In this document: positions 9,263 through 62,933 of the stretch, piece after piece | How positions within the stretch are numbered: the first letter of the stretch is position 1 | How the letters are laid out: each line of letters starts with the position of its first letter | From: a virus | Taxonomy: Duplodnaviria; Caudoviricetes | Length of the DNA stretch: 64,000 nt | Virus record (IMG/VR): IMGVR_UViG_2061766007_000959 | Strand: one strand, 5' to 3' | The notes under the pieces: model-generated | What the model saw: only the letters and a program-made list of their open reading frames with translations | Databases searched by the model: none | What the model was told of the DNA's origin: nothing | Translations under genes and position numbers: made by a program

Positions 9263-10801
9263 ATGAATTTTAAGAATTTAATGGGCGTAAAGACCGCAAG
9301 ACGGTCAAGCCTGAATAAAGTTAGGGACAGCCGTCGTATCAGTGACGGTCTAAGCACAGAGGAATATACTGAACTGAAAAAACAATTCGGTTCGTTCGTT
9401 GCTCAGAACAGACGTGATATTAAGAAAGTGTCTTTGGGCGACCGTGATATTGACGGTACACGTACATTTTTTGAGTTTAACACATATTATGTGGACAACG
9501 AGTTGTCTAATCAGACTATTGAGGAAATCAAAGACTATTACGAGAACGTCGCGTCAACATACGGTGAGTATCTGAATTACCGTAACACAAAGATACAGGA
9601 AATGTCTTACAGTGAAGAGGATGAGGTGCTGAATGATTTGATAGTTGAATTTTCAGAATACTTACAGGGTCGGTATGACGACAACACCTTGCGTGATTTT
9701 CTTTTACAAGCCGTTGTTTACGGTGGTACAGAGGGTATCGATGCGTTTGAAAAGAAACTTTTTGCCGCGCTCGGTGTTCAGAATAGCGAGGAAATAGAAG
9801 ACTATTTCGCTACCAATCCGAAAAACGTACAGTCTAAGTTTGAAATAGGTGATTCTGTCGAATACCAACAGAACAGTCATACTATTATCGCTGAAATAAC
9901 CGACAAAGAGTTTGGTTGGGAAGGTTGGGTTTATGCGATAGAAGGTGTTGACGAGAGCGGTGACTATTGGAAAGTTGAGTTGATGAGCGGCGGTGTTTCT
10001 GAGAAAAAACTAAAACCGCAGATTCCTGTTTCCGATTCCCGTAAGGTCAAAGACGGTTTAGAGTATAATTATATCTATGAGTTGGACGATATGATTAACG
10101 AAAAACCTATTGACGAGGTTATTAAAATGTTGGGTGATGATTGGACGCTGTCGAGGGATTTCACAGATGATAGTGTTATTGGTAAGCCGTGGCAGACTTG
10201 GTATTACGAGTTTGTTAGCGGTGACACAAAACAGGACGGTGACGAAGAATACTTAATATTGGGTACTATGAACAAAGGTGGCAGGGTATTTTATGTGAGT
10301 ACAAACTGTAATCAACCGCGTTTTGTAAGACCTCACAGACTTTCCGACAGTCGTCGTGTGAAAGATTCTTTGGGCGAGGACGAATACGAGGAATACCTGA
10401 ACGAACTCGGTGAGGGTCTTGACGAGGACGAGTTTATTATGGGTGGTGAATCGCGTCTCGGTATGCCTTACGGTACAGCAATGCGTCAGTACGACCCGAT
10501 AGCGTTCAACGTGGGTTACGACGAGTGGGTGCGCGAGAACGAAGACGATGACGACGAGTACAAGTTGGAACAGATTGCCGACCTTCTCGAAGAGGGCTAT
10601 CGTTCAGGCTATGACCCACAATGGGACTTAGACGTTACTGTTGACGGTCAGGATATTTCCGAGTTCAACGATGACGACAAAGACCTGATTTATCAGGACA
10701 TCGCATACGTTGTGAAAGACGGTTACGACAACTATCAGGGAATCGAGACCGAACTGTCTGACGGTTCTATCGTCTATGTTGATTTCACTCTGAATTATTG
10801 A
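9263..10801 (+). CDS. acidic multidomain polyprotein with repeated DSRRVKD-like linkers
   Basis: VRDSRRISD, VSDSRKVKD and LSDSRRVKD separate D/E/Y-rich modules. Confidence 0.75.
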   Translation: MNFKNLMGVKTARRSSLNKVRDSRRISDGLSTEEYTELKKQFGSFVAQNRRDIKKVSLGDRDIDGTRTFFEFNTYYVDNELSNQTIEEIKDYYENVASTYGEYLNYRNTKIQEMSYSEEDEVLNDLIVEFSEYLQGRYDDNTLRDFLLQAVVYGGTEGIDAFEKKLFAALGVQNSEEIEDYFATNPKNVQSKFEIGDSVEYQQNSHTIIAEITDKEFGWEGWVYAIEGVDESGDYWKVELMSGGVSEKKLKPQIPVSDSRKVKDGLEYNYIYELDDMINEKPIDEVIKMLGDDWTLSRDFTDDSVIGKPWQTWYYEFVSGDTKQDGDEEYLILGTMNKGGRVFYVSTNCNQPRFVRPHRLSDSRRVKDSLGEDEYEEYLNELGEGLDEDEFIMGGESRLGMPYGTAMRQYDPIAFNVGYDEWVRENEDDDDEYKLEQIADLLEEGYRSGYDPQWDLDVTVDGQDISEFNDDDKDLIYQDIAYVVKDGYDNYQGIETELSDGSIVYVDFTLNY

Positions 10802-11441: not shown

Positions 11442-12026
11442 ATGAGAAACAGAATGACAAGACGCGTGAAAGACGCTTTTGACGAGGACGAAGAGCCTAA
11501 CCAACTGATAGACGTTGAGGTTACGTTTTGTTGGGACGACTATTTGTTTCAAGAAAACTATGAAGAGGACAGAGAAGAGTACGGACTGCCTGAGGAAATA
11601 GACAGTGAGTTGGTGACGGAAATAGCAATGGACATAGACCGCGAGTTGTGTCGGGTTATATCCGACTATTTTGGTAAGCATTATTGTTCATATCACAGTG
11701 GCAGTAACGGTTATGGTGGCGATTTGACTTGCTTTGACACAAGTGTTGAGGAATCTGTACTGTTTGACAAATTGAGCAGTTACGACATTCCGTTCTCGGA
11801 CGCTGAAATCAGGAACGACGATATTTACTTGCATTTGGACAACAGCAACAGCGGCGTTTACGGAATGTTTGGTAGCGCAATAGACGATTTTATCGACAGA
11901 AAATACACTGACGACGTGAGCAGAAGAATCGCGATAGACATTATGGAAATCAACGAAATGGGTGCTGACCTGTATATCACAAACCCGTCTGAACGTATTA
12001 TTCAGTTGGTTCAAGAAAATATTTGA
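11442..12026 (+). CDS. highly acidic protein with basic RRVKD leader
   Basis: MRNRMTRRVKD followed by a D/E-rich body. Confidence 0.7.
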   Translation: MRNRMTRRVKDAFDEDEEPNQLIDVEVTFCWDDYLFQENYEEDREEYGLPEEIDSELVTEIAMDIDRELCRVISDYFGKHYCSYHSGSNGYGGDLTCFDTSVEESVLFDKLSSYDIPFSDAEIRNDDIYLHLDNSNSGVYGMFGSAIDDFIDRKYTDDVSRRIAIDIMEINEMGADLYITNPSERIIQLVQENI

Positions 12027-35093: not shown

Positions 35094-35492
35094 ATGGCTA
35101 AGAATTTGAATTATAAGAAAGCGAGAGCGATAAAAGATTCGCAAAAACGCGTTGAGGATATGCGCTCGGGTGGTTCAGGCTCGCTACGGTCGTCAATATT
35201 CAACCGTCAGGACGAGGCGTTGACAAAAGAGGCGATTTCCGAATTTAAAGATTCGTTTTGGTCTAACGGCGGCAAGTGCGACGTTATCGGCGGCAACTTG
35301 TCAGGCTCGAACGGCAAGAAACACGTTTGTTGCGCGTATTTGCAGATTCCTGACAAAGTGCCTATGGGCGGCGGTGTTGACGCGCTGTTGGCTAAGGTTG
35401 ACTATGACAAGAACAAAAAAATATTCAAGGCTTATTACCGTCCGAAAAACGGCAAATGGGGACAGTCTAAAAACGTTGACGAAGAGGTTTAG
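35094..35492 (+). CDS. protein with basic IKDS..RVED leader
   Basis: MAKNLNYKKARAIKDSQKRVED; own TATATTTG promoter at 35062. Confidence 0.65.
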   Translation: MAKNLNYKKARAIKDSQKRVEDMRSGGSGSLRSSIFNRQDEALTKEAISEFKDSFWSNGGKCDVIGGNLSGSNGKKHVCCAYLQIPDKVPMGGGVDALLAKVDYDKNKKIFKAYYRPKNGKWGQSKNVDEEV

Positions 35493-36815: not shown

Positions 36816-36897
36816 AAAAGTGTATCAATATTAAAATTATTTATATATTTGCAGAGTGATAAACGAATGAATGTTTAACAATTTAAAACTAAATGAT

Positions 36898-37152
36898 ATG
36901 AATATCAAGGGTTTAATGAACAAACGGGTGTCGGATAGCAATTACGATTTCACCGACACGGAAATTAAAAAAGTAATCTCAGGGGTTTACAAAATCGAAC
37001 GTCAGCCGAACGGTATTATCGTATATACCGAAAACGCGTTCACAAGCCTGACTAAATTAAATGCGCTGAAAGGCATATTCGGTGTTTCGGATATTGAAGT
37101 TGACTTTCGTTACGACCGTACACACGGGTTGATTTACACGTTGATAAAATAA
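36898..37152 (+). CDS. small protein with MNIKGLMNKRVSD leader
   Basis: Leader resembles those at 9263 and 39940; promoter TATATTTG at about 36844. Confidence 0.65.
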   Translation: MNIKGLMNKRVSDSNYDFTDTEIKKVISGVYKIERQPNGIIVYTENAFTSLTKLNALKGIFGVSDIEVDFRYDRTHGLIYTLIK

Positions 37153-38238: not shown

Positions 38239-39921
38239 ATGGCACAATCAGTATTAGACTTGATAGACGTTAAGTTTCAGGATGCCACAGGGCATACCTC
38301 AGTTTCCTCGACCGACATAATCGGTATGGTGATGCCTTTCTATTGGGGCGAATCGGACAAGGTCTCTGTTTACGGCAGAACGACATTCTACGAAATGTTC
38401 CCCGAATCGTTGCCGATAGGTGTCAAGAGTATCGAGAATACCGACCTGTACTCGGGCTACGCTCAGATAAAGGCGGCGTTCGCCCACGGCGCAGGCGAGG
38501 TTGAAATATACCGCCCGTCGAACGGTTGGAAATATCAGAACCTGACCATCAGCAAGACAGGCGGCGTTGTCGGTGACAGCGGTTCGCTAATCGCGGCTGA
38601 CACCAAGTACGACGAGACAAAGGCTGTGACCGTCGCCCTGAAATACGCAGGTTTCATTCCTCAGTCGCTCGCGTACGGATACGAGAACGTGAAAATCGGT
38701 GTGTCCCTGTCGAACTCGACCGACTATACGGACGGTGCTTTGATAAAGATAAACGTGTACGGCGTCGCCGCCGACAGCACTGAAACCCTGTTGGAGACAT
38801 TCGAGGGCGCGGCGAGCGCGACAGCCAAAATAGGCGGCGAATCAATCTACCTTGAAGACGTCGTGAACGGCAACAGTATGTTTATCGACGTGCGTGCGAC
38901 GGACAATGTCGTCATTCAGGCGGCGATAGCCGAGACTGAGTTTGCCTGCAAGACATACGACGAATCAGGCGTGTTCACACCTGCAACCTCAGGTCAGAAC
39001 CCGACACCTGCCTCGTTCACATCTGCGTTCAAGTTGGGAATCGACAACGGCTACGCCATGTTCAACGACTATGAATCGAGCGTATGCACGCTTATTATAA
39101 ACCCGTTCGTGACTAAGAGCGCGAAACAGAGCAACACCGAACTTGTAACCGAGTATGACGCGTATCTGAAAAACATAGCCGAGTACAGAAAGAACTGTTT
39201 GGCTGTCGTCGGATACCCGACAGACAACAACTCGGTTTACAGCAAGGAGAACATACAGACCTATTTCAACGCTCACGGCTCGAAGGGCAGTAAGTTCTGT
39301 ATCGCCGTTCAGGGTCAGGAATACCTGAGCGTGTTCGGTCAGCGTTTCACCCTGAACTGTGTCGGCGGCTATTGCGGCGCGATGGTGAACATAGCGAAAG
39401 AGGCTCACCTGAACCAAATCGCGTCGGGCTACGTTTACGGCAACTACGGCGGCTCGTTGAAGAAGTCGCTGTTGTCAGGCGCGGTGATAGACCTTATGGA
39501 AGAGGGAATCAACAGCGTGTACACGTCGAAACGCGGTAATCTTATTTGGGGTACTCGGACGCGCTACGGACGTCAGTCGTCATATTTCGGAAAAATAAAC
39601 GTAATGCGTGTTACAACCATGCTGTTGAAAAACATATTCCCGATAGCTATCGAGACACTGCACACGGACGCCGCCTCGAACCCTATCACACGGGCGTCGC
39701 TGAGTACAATGCTGAACAGCATTATCGACACGTATATCGCGAACCAAGACCTGCACGCCGACAGTTACGCCGATTGTAGCGATAGTATAAACACCGACTA
39801 CCTGACAAAGGGCGGCACAGTCCTGAACATTATACTGATGTTGCACTTTATCGGTTTGGTTGAGCGTGTAAGTATCAAGATTATCGCGACAGACACCTCT
39901 GTTACGGCTGAGTTTGTTTAA
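38239..39921 (+). CDS. tail sheath protein
   Basis: N-terminal F.WG; AEYRKNCLAV; GINSV...LIWGTRT...KINVMR sheath C-terminal motifs. Confidence 0.88.
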   Translation: MAQSVLDLIDVKFQDATGHTSVSSTDIIGMVMPFYWGESDKVSVYGRTTFYEMFPESLPIGVKSIENTDLYSGYAQIKAAFAHGAGEVEIYRPSNGWKYQNLTISKTGGVVGDSGSLIAADTKYDETKAVTVALKYAGFIPQSLAYGYENVKIGVSLSNSTDYTDGALIKINVYGVAADSTETLLETFEGAASATAKIGGESIYLEDVVNGNSMFIDVRATDNVVIQAAIAETEFACKTYDESGVFTPATSGQNPTPASFTSAFKLGIDNGYAMFNDYESSVCTLIINPFVTKSAKQSNTELVTEYDAYLKNIAEYRKNCLAVVGYPTDNNSVYSKENIQTYFNAHGSKGSKFCIAVQGQEYLSVFGQRFTLNCVGGYCGAMVNIAKEAHLNQIASGYVYGNYGGSLKKSLLSGAVIDLMEEGINSVYTSKRGNLIWGTRTRYGRQSSYFGKINVMRVTTMLLKNIFPIAIETLHTDAASNPITRASLSTMLNSIIDTYIANQDLHADSYADCSDSINTDYLTKGGTVLNIILMLHFIGLVERVSIKIIATDTSVTAEFV

Positions 39922-39939: not shown

Positions 39940-40137
39940 ATGAATTTCAAGAAAGCTATGAGACGGAAAATAAAAGACGAATGGGCGGTCGCGCCGTCCT
40001 CGTCTTTGGTTAAGAGGCTCGTCAGAGGGTTGGACGAATCAACTAACATAATCGAGCGGTATTTCCCGAAAAATCAGACAGAGAGGGAGTTTGTCAGCGC
40101 ACTGAAAGATATGGTTGAATATTTTAACAAATACTAA
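39940..40137 (+). CDS. small protein with MNFKKAMRRKIKD leader, inserted between sheath and tube
   Basis: 65-aa ORF carrying the shared leader. Confidence 0.6.
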   Translation: MNFKKAMRRKIKDEWAVAPSSSLVKRLVRGLDESTNIIERYFPKNQTEREFVSALKDMVEYFNKY

Positions 40138-41372: not shown

Positions 41373-42025
41373 TGAGCCAAGACAATCTGTTTCGGAATAT
41401 TGACGACCTGAAAAAGTATATCAAGTCGTTCACGACAAGGATAGTAAGCGACGATTATCTTTCCCCGTCCTTGCAGTCTGACTACACGATAGCTATATAC
41501 AGGAATTTCGACGACTACAAGAACAAGATAAACCCTGCCGTGTACGAGCCTGTGCTGATTCACAGCCTGTCCCTGCCCCTGTCGAACGGTGTTTCTATGA
41601 CTATGGACAAGTTGGGTCTGCAAGCGGCTGATTTCAGCGCGACGAACAAAATGTCATTCGAGTTCATAGCCGTACCGTACAGCCATAAGACGGGGGCGAA
41701 CCTGACGGCTCAGGAGACGACATACACGTCGTTGGTGCATTTTTACTACGCACAGCGTTTCACGGACAAGGGGACGCTGAAAATAAAGAGAGAGGGCGAC
41801 GCGTTGCCGACTGTGTTCGTGATAAACCTGAAGACGAACAATATAGTGTACGTGTTAAAGAACTGTGTTTTCTCGTACCCGAAGTTTCAGACGTCACCGA
41901 GTTCAAACAGTATAGCCGTGTACAGGACAGAGGTGACGTTCTCCTCGTACAGAGAGTTCTTGCAGGACAACATAAACGATTACAACATTTCCCAAACGAT
42001 GGCGAGGGACGTATCCAAATACTAA
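41369..42025 (+). CDS. third tube-fold/baseplate protein
   Basis: Y.LKNC.F and V.F.Y pattern; operon position. Confidence 0.5.
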   Translation: MMSQDNLFRNIDDLKKYIKSFTTRIVSDDYLSPSLQSDYTIAIYRNFDDYKNKINPAVYEPVLIHSLSLPLSNGVSMTMDKLGLQAADFSATNKMSFEFIAVPYSHKTGANLTAQETTYTSLVHFYYAQRFTDKGTLKIKREGDALPTVFVINLKTNNIVYVLKNCVFSYPKFQTSPSSNSIAVYRTEVTFSSYREFLQDNINDYNISQTMARDVSKY

Positions 42026-42043
42026 CAACAAAACAATACAACT

Positions 42044-42835
42044 ATGAAAGTGATTTTACCGAGCAACGGTCTGTTAGGCACAAAATGGCTTGATTTGAGA
42101 GAGCCTAAGTTCTGCGACCTGAGAAAGACGATAACCGCGACAAGTGACGAGTATCTGTTCAAGTACGAGTTCGTCAGCGGACTGTGCGAGTTCGACCCTA
42201 AGAAAATAACTATGGACGACGTTCAGTACCTGTATGAAATAGCGGCGTCGGCAATATCGTTCAACACACTGAAGTTCAAGGTCAGGTGCAGTGAGTGTGA
42301 CACGGAAATCAGCAGTGAGTTCTCGTTCGCGGACGACGACATACCCGTCAAGACGTTGCACAAGGATTCAAGGAAATGCAAGAAAAAGGTCGGTGACGAG
42401 GAATACGTCTTTCATATTCTGTCGGCTCAGGACGGCGTTGACATACATACGTACGGCTTGGACGACGACGAACAGGACAGAATGGTCGAAGAGGCGACCG
42501 TGTGCAAGGTGTTAGGGTACGACATAACAGACGAGAATATCGAAAAGGTGAGGGCGTTGCCTGTCGCTATATATGTCGCCTGTTTCCTGTTTGTGAAAGC
42601 GAACAGGCACGGAATGGTCATAACAAAGGCTGTGAAATGTCCTAAATGCAAGACAGAGGCGCGTGTGCGCTTGGAATTGGATTCGTCGTGGGTCAAGATA
42701 GACCTGCCGACGTTCGTCGCACAGTACGCCCAAATAAGGGACTGTGTCGATTTCAAGTCGTTCCTTGATTTCACCATTCCTGAGTTTAAGAATTTTATTG
42801 ATTATCTGAACGCGGAGGCAAAGAAAGATGAGTGA
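42044..42835 (+). CDS. baseplate hub/tail assembly chaperone (T4 gp26-like)
   Basis: N-terminal LPS.G; two CxxC motifs; upstream of the tape measure. Confidence 0.65.
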   Translation: MKVILPSNGLLGTKWLDLREPKFCDLRKTITATSDEYLFKYEFVSGLCEFDPKKITMDDVQYLYEIAASAISFNTLKFKVRCSECDTEISSEFSFADDDIPVKTLHKDSRKCKKKVGDEEYVFHILSAQDGVDIHTYGLDDDEQDRMVEEATVCKVLGYDITDENIEKVRALPVAIYVACFLFVKANRHGMVITKAVKCPKCKTEARVRLELDSSWVKIDLPTFVAQYAQIRDCVDFKSFLDFTIPEFKNFIDYLNAEAKKDE

Positions 42836-59860: not shown

Positions 59861-62128
59861 ATGAGTAAAGATTTTTTGGCAGGTTTAGTTAAAGTCCGCA
59901 ACGGTGAAAACCGAACAGAGAGTTCGGCACGCGGACTTGAAGTCGTGCGGCAGAAGAGAACAGTGCTTGACGACGCTATTACAAATAACAAAAAGACAGA
60001 GTTGCCGCGTGTAAGCGACAAGTCATATTACAAGCCCTCACGCATTTCGCGCATTTCACAGGTCGAGCGTCCTCAGAAGACGCAGTACATTGTGTTGGAC
60101 AGCAGGGCGATTGATGAAATAGCCGAAATGGGCAACGCTCAGAGACGCAAGTTCCTGTCGCGCCTGTCTGACGGTGAGCGTCGCAAGGTTCTGCGCGCGC
60201 TGAACGCCGTGAGGGTTCGTGACGACTTGGAGAACGGCGAGGTTGAGCGTCGGGATTTGAACCGTCAACTCGAACCTCAGGACTTGTATGTAATCAACGA
60301 CCTGTTGACAAAATACGCCTATTCGAGAAAGGACGACGAGTTGAGAATGCTTGAAAGCTACAAGGACATTCTGAACGACAGCGACCCTCAGGAGGCGGCT
60401 GTGTTGGACATTATCAACAAGGTTATCGACAACGAACTCGATATGACAGCCGACGAAGAGGAACTGAACATACTTTACGATTTCTTAGAGGACAACAAGT
60501 TCGAGACCGAATCTTTACAGACCGCGCTGACAATCGCTTTCGGTGACACTATTGACGAGAACGGCGACGGTGTCGTCGGTGACGAGCCTGAGGGTAACGA
60601 ACTCGGTGACGAGGAACTTGATATTGAGGGTGACGACTTGGGTGGTGACGACCTTGATATTGAGGGTGACGAACTCGGCGGCGAGCCTGAGGACGAGACA
60701 CCCGACCTGAACATAAACCTCGGTGATTCACGGAGACGCCAACCGAGACCGATGAAACGCGTCGCTGACAACAGAAACGGGTCAGAGCGTCCTGAAAGAC
60801 GTATCGAGCGCAAGCGTGTCGAGGACACCGCCGAGGAATCGTTCGAGGACGTCGAGGCTTTGATTATAGACGACGCCTACGACCTTGCCGACGATATGCT
60901 GAACGGTCGCGCTATGAACGTGAGCGATTCTATGAACGAAATAGTAGAGCGTTACACGAAACGTTGCGGCGAGCGTGTCCGCGTGAAAGACTGCATGGAC
61001 AGGGCGTTCGCCCACTCAGTGCAGGAAATATCGCTTGAAAAGTCGGCGCACGTACAGAAAGTGAAGGACGATATTATAGACCAAATAGACGAGCAGTTGG
61101 GTGACGAATCAGGCGAGAGCGGTGACGGCAAGACATTGCTCGAAAGTTTGGGTTCGGCGTTAGAGGCGTTCGCGAACGGTGACACGAGCGAGTTGCAGGC
61201 GTTGGCTGACCTGTCCGTTGACGACATAAACCCTGAAGAGGAATCAATAGACGAGGACTTTGAGGGTAACGAACTCGGTGACGAGGAACTTGATATTGAG
61301 GGTGACGGTTTGGAAACGGACATCGAGACAGAGAGCGGCAAGGGTGACGAACTCGGTGACGAGGACGACGAGGAATCTGAGGACGAGGACGAGGATGAAG
61401 ACGACGAGGACAAAAAGGTTGACAAGATAAAACTGAACCTGCACGATTCAGCCGTTATGTTGGCAAAATGGTTGGTCGCAAAGGACAAACGCGCCAACAA
61501 GATTATCGACGCCCTGAAAGACGAGTTGCCGATACTGAAAAAGTACAATTTCAAAATATCCGATTCAGAGTTGATTGAAGAGGAATTTGAACCTGTCGAG
61601 GTTATCGAGCCTTTGCTGAACCGCGAGGAATTTCACTCAGTGTATCAGACACCGCCGTACGTCGGCGAAATGGCTAAGGAATCGAACCCCGTAGAGTGTC
61701 TGTCCGCGACAGCCGTGAACTACGGCGACCTGTCGCCTGTCATTCAGGTTGAGTGCGAGAACGGAACGGTTCAGAATTGGATTCCGATTATGGGTTCGAG
61801 CGAGAATATCGCGGAACAGTTGAACGTTGAGGGCGCGAATGTTGAAAAGATTATTTCCGACAACTGTGTTCCTGCGGAGGACTACTATTCAGCGGCGGCT
61901 AAGACGAACAACTTGGGTATTATAGACAGTAAGTTCTACAAACGCAAGTTGAGTGACGAGTGTTGGGTCTGCGACGACGTTCCTGAGTTCATAAAGGACG
62001 AGGGTGTCGAGGGCGGCGCGATGTTCGCACAAGAGGGACTGACGACTATGCCGAAAGTCGTACCGTCAGGCTCGGTTCTTATTTACGGAACGAAATACAA
62101 CTATTACAATAAATCTAAAAAACAATAA
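59861..62128 (+). CDS. large acidic prohead core/scaffold-like protein with many [VIL]-x-D sites
   Basis: RVSD, RVRD, RVAD, RVED, RVKD, KVKD, KISD, KLSD and similar; acidic low-complexity tracts. Confidence 0.55.
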   Translation: MSKDFLAGLVKVRNGENRTESSARGLEVVRQKRTVLDDAITNNKKTELPRVSDKSYYKPSRISRISQVERPQKTQYIVLDSRAIDEIAEMGNAQRRKFLSRLSDGERRKVLRALNAVRVRDDLENGEVERRDLNRQLEPQDLYVINDLLTKYAYSRKDDELRMLESYKDILNDSDPQEAAVLDIINKVIDNELDMTADEEELNILYDFLEDNKFETESLQTALTIAFGDTIDENGDGVVGDEPEGNELGDEELDIEGDDLGGDDLDIEGDELGGEPEDETPDLNINLGDSRRRQPRPMKRVADNRNGSERPERRIERKRVEDTAEESFEDVEALIIDDAYDLADDMLNGRAMNVSDSMNEIVERYTKRCGERVRVKDCMDRAFAHSVQEISLEKSAHVQKVKDDIIDQIDEQLGDESGESGDGKTLLESLGSALEAFANGDTSELQALADLSVDDINPEEESIDEDFEGNELGDEELDIEGDGLETDIETESGKGDELGDEDDEESEDEDEDEDDEDKKVDKIKLNLHDSAVMLAKWLVAKDKRANKIIDALKDELPILKKYNFKISDSELIEEEFEPVEVIEPLLNREEFHSVYQTPPYVGEMAKESNPVECLSATAVNYGDLSPVIQVECENGTVQNWIPIMGSSENIAEQLNVEGANVEKIISDNCVPAEDYYSAAAKTNNLGIIDSKFYKRKLSDECWVCDDVPEFIKDEGVEGGAMFAQEGLTTMPKVVPSGSVLIYGTKYNYYNKSKKQ
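60589..61307 (+). repeat. 47-nt direct repeat (60589-60635 and 61261-61307) encoding EGNELGDEELDIEGD
   Basis: Identical DNA at both sites. Confidence 0.85.
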
Positions 62129-62132
62129 GGAT

Positions 62133-62699
62133 ATGAAAACAGTTGAAATTTATTCGTTCGACGAATTGGACGAGGCAACACAGAAAAAAGTTATTCAAAG
62201 ATATTACGGTGACGTTTCTGAGGCTTTGGGTGATTTTATAAATGACGATTTTCTTGGCACGTCAAAGGCAATATGTGAACAGTTGGGACTAAAAACAATT
62301 CGCGGAAGTTACGCACAGTTTGAATTGAGTGACCCATCAGCGTATGAATATGTATATTTAAAAACGGACAACAGGGACGAAGACGGTTACGACATATATA
62401 ATGACGACAGTTACGAATCAGTTGTTGCGTGGTTGAATGACAAAAAACAGGGTTTCAAATACCAAGACGATTTGTATTTCACGGGTGCTTACAGTGACGG
62501 TGCGGTTTGCGATTATATCAACAAGGTTTTGAGCGGCGAAGAGCAACCTCAGGATATTGACGAGTTCCTTTCAAAACTAAGCCGTATCTTTGACCGTGCT
62601 TGGGAGGACGAGTTTACTTACGGTTTTGACGACGACACAATTGCTGAAACAATAATCGCTAACGATTGGGAATTTACAGCAGACGGCAAACGGGTTTAA
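62133..62699 (+). CDS. acidic protein of the YxFDEL...N.WEFT.DG family (mobile-element anti-host-type)
   Basis: YSFDELDEATQKK, FTG.Y.D, IANDWEFTADG. Confidence 0.65.
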   Translation: MKTVEIYSFDELDEATQKKVIQRYYGDVSEALGDFINDDFLGTSKAICEQLGLKTIRGSYAQFELSDPSAYEYVYLKTDNRDEDGYDIYNDDSYESVVAWLNDKKQGFKYQDDLYFTGAYSDGAVCDYINKVLSGEEQPQDIDEFLSKLSRIFDRAWEDEFTYGFDDDTIAETIIANDWEFTADGKRV

Positions 62700-62755
62700 T
62701 AAATAACGCCTTTTATGATTACAAAGGTTTACTAACAATTTAAAACAGTAAAGAT

Positions 62756-62890
62756 ATGAATAAGGAAAAGTTTTTAAAGGAACTGAAAAGAACCCGAAGT
62801 CAGGCGGAATCACTGATGTATTCTCTGCATTATCTGTTAGAGGAAACAGTCTATGACGCAAGAGACTATATTGAAAACTTAGAGTATTAA
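62756..62890 (+). CDS. 44-aa helical peptide (absent from ORF track)
   Basis: MNKEKFLKELKRTRSQAESLMYSLHYLLEETVYDARDYIENLEY*, with a typical AT-rich leader. Confidence 0.5.
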   Translation: MNKEKFLKELKRTRSQAESLMYSLHYLLEETVYDARDYIENLEY

Positions 62891-62933
62891 AACGCCTTTT
62901 CAAATTCATAATAAATATTTTATTTGTGTGGTG

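Follow-up and report, generated by a model that had tools for sequence, protein, structure and literature searches.

Phage T4 packages a set of internal proteins, diverse defence proteins that have in common a capsid targeting sequence of ~10 residues alone, which is removed by gp21, and that serve as injected anti-restriction factors (PMC3012670, PMC9026906, PMC5694885). A targeting sequence with Asp at the position of the cut is not processed in T4 (PMC9026906). In giant phages, where an S/A-x-E rule applies, many head-internal proteins are likewise cut, often multiply, by a T4-related prohead protease (phiKZ gp175, SPN3US gp245); their paralogues have common N-terminal propeptides, and the C-terminus of the protease is removed by self-processing (PMC5694885, PMC10052503). 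The prohead-protease cuts mapped by proteomics of SPN3US take off N-terminal propeptides and do not separate modules (PMC10052503). The polyvalent proteins described by Iyer, Burroughs, Anand, de Souza and Aravind in 2017 are multi-module proteins with extensive mosaicism that are predicted to travel with the DNA (PMC5512222). A full-text search of the literature yielded no paper combining "prohead protease" with "polyprotein". In polymorphic toxins, a short conserved peptide, such as VENN in CdiA, marks the exchange point of variable modules.

The window analysed here is a stretch of 64,000 nucleotides from the 142,338-bp genome of an uncultured phage, which is represented by a single contig. 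The large genes of the genome all run in the same direction, with the tail sheath gene at 38239-39921. The present study concerns a multi-module protein of the window whose modules are joined by a repeated nine-residue linker, and we consider it fairly probable, judging from the linkers, the leader and the head genes described below, that it belongs to a family of cargo polyproteins that are addressed to the capsid and cleaved by the T4 rule in an Asp-specific form.

A multi-module protein and its conserved linkers

The candidate cargo polyprotein is encoded on the forward strand at 9263..10801 (coordinates including the stop codon) and has 512 aa, 22% of which are Asp or Glu. A database protein, P0001, is 100% identical to the ORF but is called from Met7 (MGVKTARR...); the additional N-terminal residues, which match the family leader MN-F/L-K-x-L-M, favour Met1 at 9263 as the true start. 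The three motifs that the first-pass annotation had reported in the ORF were all confirmed at their nucleotide positions on the forward strand: VRDSRRISD (linker 1, aa 20-28, nt 9320-9346), VSDSRKVKD (linker 2, aa 256-264, nt 10028-10054), which contains V-S-D/S and V-K-D/ as tandem candidate sites (the slash marking the putative cut), and LSDSRRVKD (linker 3, aa 360-368, nt 10340-10366). The division into three segments also held, with lengths of 227, 95 and 144 aa in place of the ~235, 105 and 143 aa given before, and the segments are indeed acidic and Tyr-rich, with net charges of -24, -8 and -36. Both motifs quoted earlier from the last segment belong to widespread stand-alone small proteins, and the segment is better described as two modules, 3a and 3b, which are joined without a linker; the net charges by module are -24 (1), -8 (2), -14 (3a) and -22 (3b).

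The N-terminal leader (MNFKNLM..., 9263..9346) ends in linker 1, and AlphaFold2 (AF2) gave it a pLDDT of <50 over aa 1-27. Module 1 (aa 29-255, 9347..10027) is an orphan with a low-confidence AF2 model and probably consists of two to three structural units; it includes a weaker site, I-G-D-S, at aa 195-198 (nt 9845-9856). Among 1.84 billion representatives, the only homologies to module 1 were in P0002, which matches its final ~24 aa, and in P0020, a database protein of 3294 aa with a weak match to its repeats. P0020 has nine tandem repeats of ~213 aa, each weakly like aa 136-205 of the target (29% identity). Module 2 (aa 265-359, 10055..10339) is a small alpha/beta domain with a predicted core at aa 267-347 (pLDDT 75-91), and it recurs in P0004, P0013 and P0027, each time in other company. 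Module 3a (aa 369-427, 10367..10543; pLDDT 74-98) belongs to a widespread family; its region at aa 372-427 matches ~70 stand-alone proteins of 55-90 aa with the pattern YEEYLNE...GG..R...YG..LR.YDP.AF.VGY.EW. Module 3b (aa 428-512, 10544..10798; pLDDT 77-95) is a conserved C-terminal cap in most family members and is also found alone; aa 425-512 match a second set of proteins, separate from that of module 3a.

The database homologues of the target are all built alike, and many of them start with MKRVKD or MKRIKD. They cover only parts of it (10-51% coverage, 38-82% identity), and homology begins at linker 2 in P0004 and at aa 350-362, close to linker 3, in P0002, P0003 and P0005. In an all-against-all comparison of 24 members, 53% of the internal alignment ends lay within 8 aa of a linker, compared with 20±2% (maximum 27%) at random. 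The outcome that would have refuted the first-pass interpretation, a structure prediction with the linkers inside folded domains, was not seen; the linkers lie in AF2 coil flanking the modules. The whole-protein model, whose alignment rows cover mainly module 3, was confident for that module only, beginning at ~aa 366-372, right after linker 3, and showed aa 1-27 and 242-275 as coil with a pLDDT of <50. Module 2 was folded separately with its flanks because a joint MAFFT alignment of all-module fragments misaligned it, and this model had a compact core, with linkers 2 and 3 again in coil (pLDDT <50). These alignments and models lend indirect support to the view that the linkers are joints of a cleavage type, and that the modules between them fold on their own and are shuffled. 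Expanded joints with an internal Met are present in P0003 (aa 100-114), P0005 (aa 1-20) and the genome paralogue at reverse-complement 48728 (aa 82-97); examples of their sequences are VSDS-KNNKD-MKRVKD in P0003 and VSDSNKKHNT-MRRIRD in a genome paralogue. They resemble gene boundaries fused in recent times, which suggests that single-module genes are still being joined into polyproteins and split off from them.

The linker motif occurs far more often than expected by chance. DS[KR][KR][VI].D was found 13 times genome-wide, compared with 0.0 times in 200 shuffles of the proteins, and the longer form [VIL]SDS[KR][KR][VI].D seven times, compared with none in the shuffles; in a six-frame scan of the whole genome, the motif was almost confined to real forward-strand ORFs. 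Its carriers in the genome include at least five multi-module proteins (686, 774, 584, 398 and 512 aa). The 41 full linkers collected from 23 proteins of the target family give the consensus [VI]-S-D-S-R-[RK]-[VI]-K-D (V30/I6/L3 - S28 - D41 - S41 - R40 - R21/K19 - V27/I14 - K29 - D41), in which the first Asp, the following Ser and the second Asp are invariant (41/41) and the basic pair R-[RK] is nearly so. The copies differ in their codons, with TCC, TCA, AGT or AGC for Ser, CGT, CGC, CGG or AGA for Arg, and GTT, GTC or GTG for Val; this freedom of the codons points to selection on the peptide and not on the DNA. The shorter pattern [VI].DS is about threefold enriched in the proteome (77 copies versus 27±5 in shuffles), whereas the T4-type pattern [LI].E[AGS] is not (76 versus 72±8). 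The motif is present also in unlikely cargo, such as DNA polymerase, and 12 of 42 copies lie within the first 25 aa of their proteins (P = 2.7e-3).

Leader, gene context and head genes

The leader MN[LFIY]K.LM...[KR][KR][VI]xD is found on the target and on at least eight other proteins of the genome, and also, in relatives, on scaffold-like and other proteins, its bearers being otherwise unrelated; its terminal [KR][VI]xD core is common to conserved sites of the capsid protein, the scaffold and the protease. About eight single-module proteins of the genome start with a related leader, for example, MNLKKLMDSKKIKD, MNLKRLMDSKRIKD and MRNRMTRRVKD, and the last form (MRNRMT-RRVKD) is the N-terminus of a single-module acidic neighbour of the target at 11442..12026 (forward strand). 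Further leader-bearing proteins are encoded on the same strand of the window: a 132-aa protein of the tail/structural region at 35094..35492 (...KKARAIKDS QKRVED...), a small protein at 36871..37152 (...MNIKGLMNKRVSDS...) and a 65-aa protein just after the tail sheath gene at 39940..40137 (MNFKKAMRRKIKD...). From these sequences, the leader is a candidate capsid-targeting sequence that would also supply the first cut sites. The window gene itself lies ~20 kb from the head genes, surrounded by methyltransferase and small acidic genes. Gene neighbourhood as well as the leader suggests a link of the family to head genes: four genome paralogues of the target adjoin terminase/portal or protease genes, the genes just upstream of the protease gene are those for the 398-aa polyprotein and for two small proteins with the leader, and in ~150-kb relatives the target homologues P0003 and P0005 have their genes next to, and upstream of, those for terminase and portal. 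The scaffold-like protein of such relatives starts with MDLKKLM...NKRVTDS.

The genome contains, outside the window, a T4-type head module consisting of a large terminase, a portal protein, a 259-aa scaffold-like protein, a Peptidase_S77 protein and a Gp23-family capsid protein. The S77 protein, of 231 aa, scored 32.9 bits against a cutoff of 27 and matches T4 gp21 (5JBL) with E = 0.003 across GVSSRGLG and EHP; H75, S133 and D160 are invariant in four relatives. The capsid gene directly follows the protease gene, and its product matches Gp23 (5.3e-15) and a T4 gp23 profile (7e-6). The linker core [KR]-[VI]-x-D-S occurs twice in the capsid propeptide, as HRVADS (aa 26-31) and GRVNDS (aa 72-77), and both sites are kept in 120 homologues down to 42% identity; D75, invariant in 48 homologues, is the first invariant column of the capsid alignment. 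T4 gp23 is cut at AFGSFLTE65/A66, its mature chain being the precursor minus 65 residues, and the present capsid protein reads AFGRVND75/S. The correspondence of D75/S76 with E65/A66 is drawn from local context and position, since phmmer, a profile search and hhalign of the capsid N-terminus against T4 gp23 aligned the C-terminal region only. The propeptide also has a semi-conserved [LMA]-x-E-x-G-V, which could be a Glu-type site instead. Near the ends of the protease, D16-S17, D177-S178 and D196-S197 are all invariant, and the scaffold-like protein, in which the motif is densest, has eight copies of the core in its 259 aa. The core motif is thus present where processing of the capsid protein, the scaffold and the protease would be expected, and we take these positions, from their sequences, as putative cut sites.

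The same features are found in relatives. L011, with 60% capsid identity, has the same protease and capsid sites together with further linker proteins, and L012 and L013 (42-43% identity) retain the capsid and protease sites. A search for related loci with the protease among viral contigs found nothing, and none of 50,697 phage records was matched by the target in tblastn; tblastn of the capsid protein against the phage records found only one unannotated human-faecal fragment.

Several other genes of these phages were observed beside those described above. A very acidic protein of 755 aa (25% Asp+Glu), encoded in the window at 59861-62128, carries five sites of the type [VI]-x-D-S or [KR]-[VI]-x-D-[GA]; its N-terminus, MSKDFLAGLVKV..., resembles that of the scaffold-like protein (MSDFLNGLVEV...), and it is possibly a further component of the head core or the cargo. 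Upstream of the terminase gene, the block of polyprotein genes begins with one for a protein of 394 aa (G000:C1:99586-100770, reverse-complement 41569-42753), in which [VI]-x-D-S occurs six times. In the corresponding block of a relative, a protein (L007:6128-6748) has a weak Pfam match to PBECR3 (phage BECR RNase), and a similar N-terminus was seen in L010; PBECR3 is likewise known in association with polyvalent proteins. In relatives, the head module encodes a DUF3293 protein (L007:18952-19647, L010:17433-18128) that starts with the same leader, MNLKRLINRN...RKVSD. Genes for IS605-type OrfB/TnpB (Cas12f-like) are inserted between the polyprotein and terminase genes (L007:12094-13290) or inside the head module (L012:5710-6900). 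In addition, two adjacent paralogues of 296-297 aa with weak Hint/intein-type Pfam matches lie between the portal and protease genes (G000:C1:79418-81271, reverse-complement 61068-62921), one of them with a short run of masked or unknown residues.

Proposed processing and alternative explanations

If the reading that we favour is correct, the short basic N-terminal leader would direct the protein to the core of the growing prohead, in the way that the internal proteins of T4 are directed by their capsid targeting sequence, and the gp21-like S77 serine protease would cut inside the prohead after Asp in [VI]-x-D/S, an Asp version of the L/I-x-E/ rule of T4. Each linker, [VI]-S-D/S-R-[RK]-[VI]-K-D/x, would offer one canonical site and a second possible one; V-S-D/S fits the capsid and protease sites at P3-P1', and R-V-K-D fits them at P4-P1. 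If only the first Asp were cut, the released module would start with S-R-R-V-K-D, which is close to the M-K-R-V-K-D of stand-alone proteins. Cutting at the linkers would release the acidic modules as separate small proteins, which might remain with the DNA and presumably be injected, and because the joint is a portable peptide, modules could be gained, lost, fused or swapped there. As gp21 of T4 rejects Asp, such a model requires that P1 specificity has changed in this clade. The steps from targeting and cleavage, with its choice of Asp, to head retention, injection and any anti-defence role are ones that we infer from the sequences. The claim of the first-pass annotation that the polyprotein is processed in the head gains indirect support from the linkers, the sites, the leader and the context; the part of it that concerned the identity of the effectors gains none. 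A wider scenario is put forward only tentatively: in a gut/rumen T4-type clade, the S77 protease may have been retuned from Glu to Asp, so that one portable nine-residue peptide would serve both as load tag and as cut joint, and dozens of small, unrelated and quickly exchanged effector modules would be packaged as polyproteins, separated in the head and injected along with the DNA as first-strike anti-defence factors.

Other explanations of the linkers must be weighed against this one. The modules might be beads on a string that is never cleaved, the linker being a flexible spacer or a short motif for binding to the scaffold core, the portal or DNA, and the protein acting or being packaged whole, as has been supposed for many polyvalent proteins. 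Such a role would suit the predicted disorder of the linkers in AF2 models and their basic nature within acidic proteins, and the polyvalent proteins N4 vRNAP, ArdC and TraC1 do travel unprocessed (PMC5512222). It is, however, an unlikely account of why [KR][VI]xD-S, with Asp invariant, also stands at the expected junction of propeptide and mature chain in the capsid protein, or of why it stands at the two ends of the protease, since processing at such capsid and protease sites is the known function in T4-type heads (PMC5694885). Nor does it readily explain why the motif is most closely spaced in the scaffold-like protein, whose degradation is required. It might instead be supposed that the linkers are cut by some other protease of the host or phage, for example, a basic-specific enzyme that recognises the dibasic R-R/K core, or that they are cut only after injection. 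The near invariance of R-[RK] in the linkers and the position of the window gene outside the head module would be understandable in that case. We regard it as improbable, because the capsid and protease sites have one basic residue or none in place of the pair, [VI]-x-D-S being what is common to all, because the polyproteins tested lack a peptidase domain, and because the leader and gene neighbourhood tie the family to head genes.

The history of the joints allows still other interpretations. The internal linkers could be scars of fusion, that is, relics of the leaders and tails of old genes, with the first leader alone being functional. The expanded joints with internal Met do resemble fused gene boundaries, and many members start with MKRVKD; relics should decay, yet 41 of 41 linkers keep D-S...D despite freely diverged codons, which makes it doubtful in the extreme that the linkers are scars and nothing else. 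A history of fusion and a present function as cut sites are, in any case, compatible. That the repeated 27 nt would be an element of DNA or RNA, such as a recombination hotspot or a regulatory signal, with the peptide being incidental, is barely credible. Module exchange does occur at the linker sequence, but a repeat or recombination signal at the DNA level was ruled out, as the Ser, Arg and Val codons differ between copies.

Relation to known cargo systems and significance

Like T4 with its IPI, IPII, IPIII and Alt, the phage encodes a gp21-like protease (MEROPS S77) and a gp23-like capsid protein; as in the T4 internal proteins, a short leader is common to otherwise unrelated, fast-evolving small proteins and ends in the hydrophobic-x-acid motif that marks the cut of the capsid propeptide. 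Unlike T4, the putative P1 residue is Asp (in 41/41 linkers and at the invariant capsid site) and not Glu, as read here from sequence alone, and the motif is also internal, as a tandem basic linker joining several modules in one precursor. In the giant phages, the described cuts take N-terminal propeptides off a single mature protein (PMC10052503); here the sites lie between several modules that fold on their own and are shuffled, and the acidic residue is Asp. Unlike VENN in CdiA, the joint occurs in many copies per protein, is not maintained as DNA and matches a protease site.

The earlier proposal that the protein is a variant of polyvalent proteins finds partial support. P0006, a homologue of the target, contains the LPD11 "large polyvalent protein-associated" domain (E = 1.9e-29), which was defined from polyvalent proteins of phages and plasmids (PMC5512222), and homologues adjoin the terminase and portal genes; the window gene itself lies ~20 kb from them. 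The window protein has no recognised effector, LPD or peptidase domain, and its modules are small (60-150 aa). Peptidase domains were found in none of the polyproteins tested; in place of the built-in zincin-like peptidase of polyvalent proteins, we propose release by the prohead protease through a dedicated linker code. Searches of Pfam, PHROGs and NCBIfam gave no match for the target and nothing above threshold for its neighbours; Foldseek against the PDB with the full-length model, which is confident for module 3 only, gave no match with E ≤ 0.001; a wide VIA-align search with the same model reached a best Z of 4.4, without an assignment; and the ESM Atlas, searched by features and by structure, provided no usable lead. 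The suggestion that the modules are DNA-mimic or anti-restriction effectors found no support, as sequence, profile, fold and language-model searches led to no assignment and acidity is the one property that fits; acidic composition alone is insufficient to define a DNA-mimic family such as Ocr or ArdA.

Even if the linkers are not cut, these proteins constitute a well-defined mosaic family whose joint is unusually conserved. Cutting of the linkers in the head would show that the P1 residue of S77 prohead proteases can change from Glu to Asp, the residue rejected by the T4 enzyme, and cargo could then be recognised in metagenomes by a simple rule, namely, that the cut motif of the capsid propeptide itself is repeated between modules. 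The modules would then make up a focused list of candidates for early-acting anti-defence factors, and the leader together with the linker would be a ready-made tool for loading foreign proteins into phage heads and releasing them there. Cutting in the head would also represent a general route by which a phage delivers many small proteins with its DNA from a single precursor.
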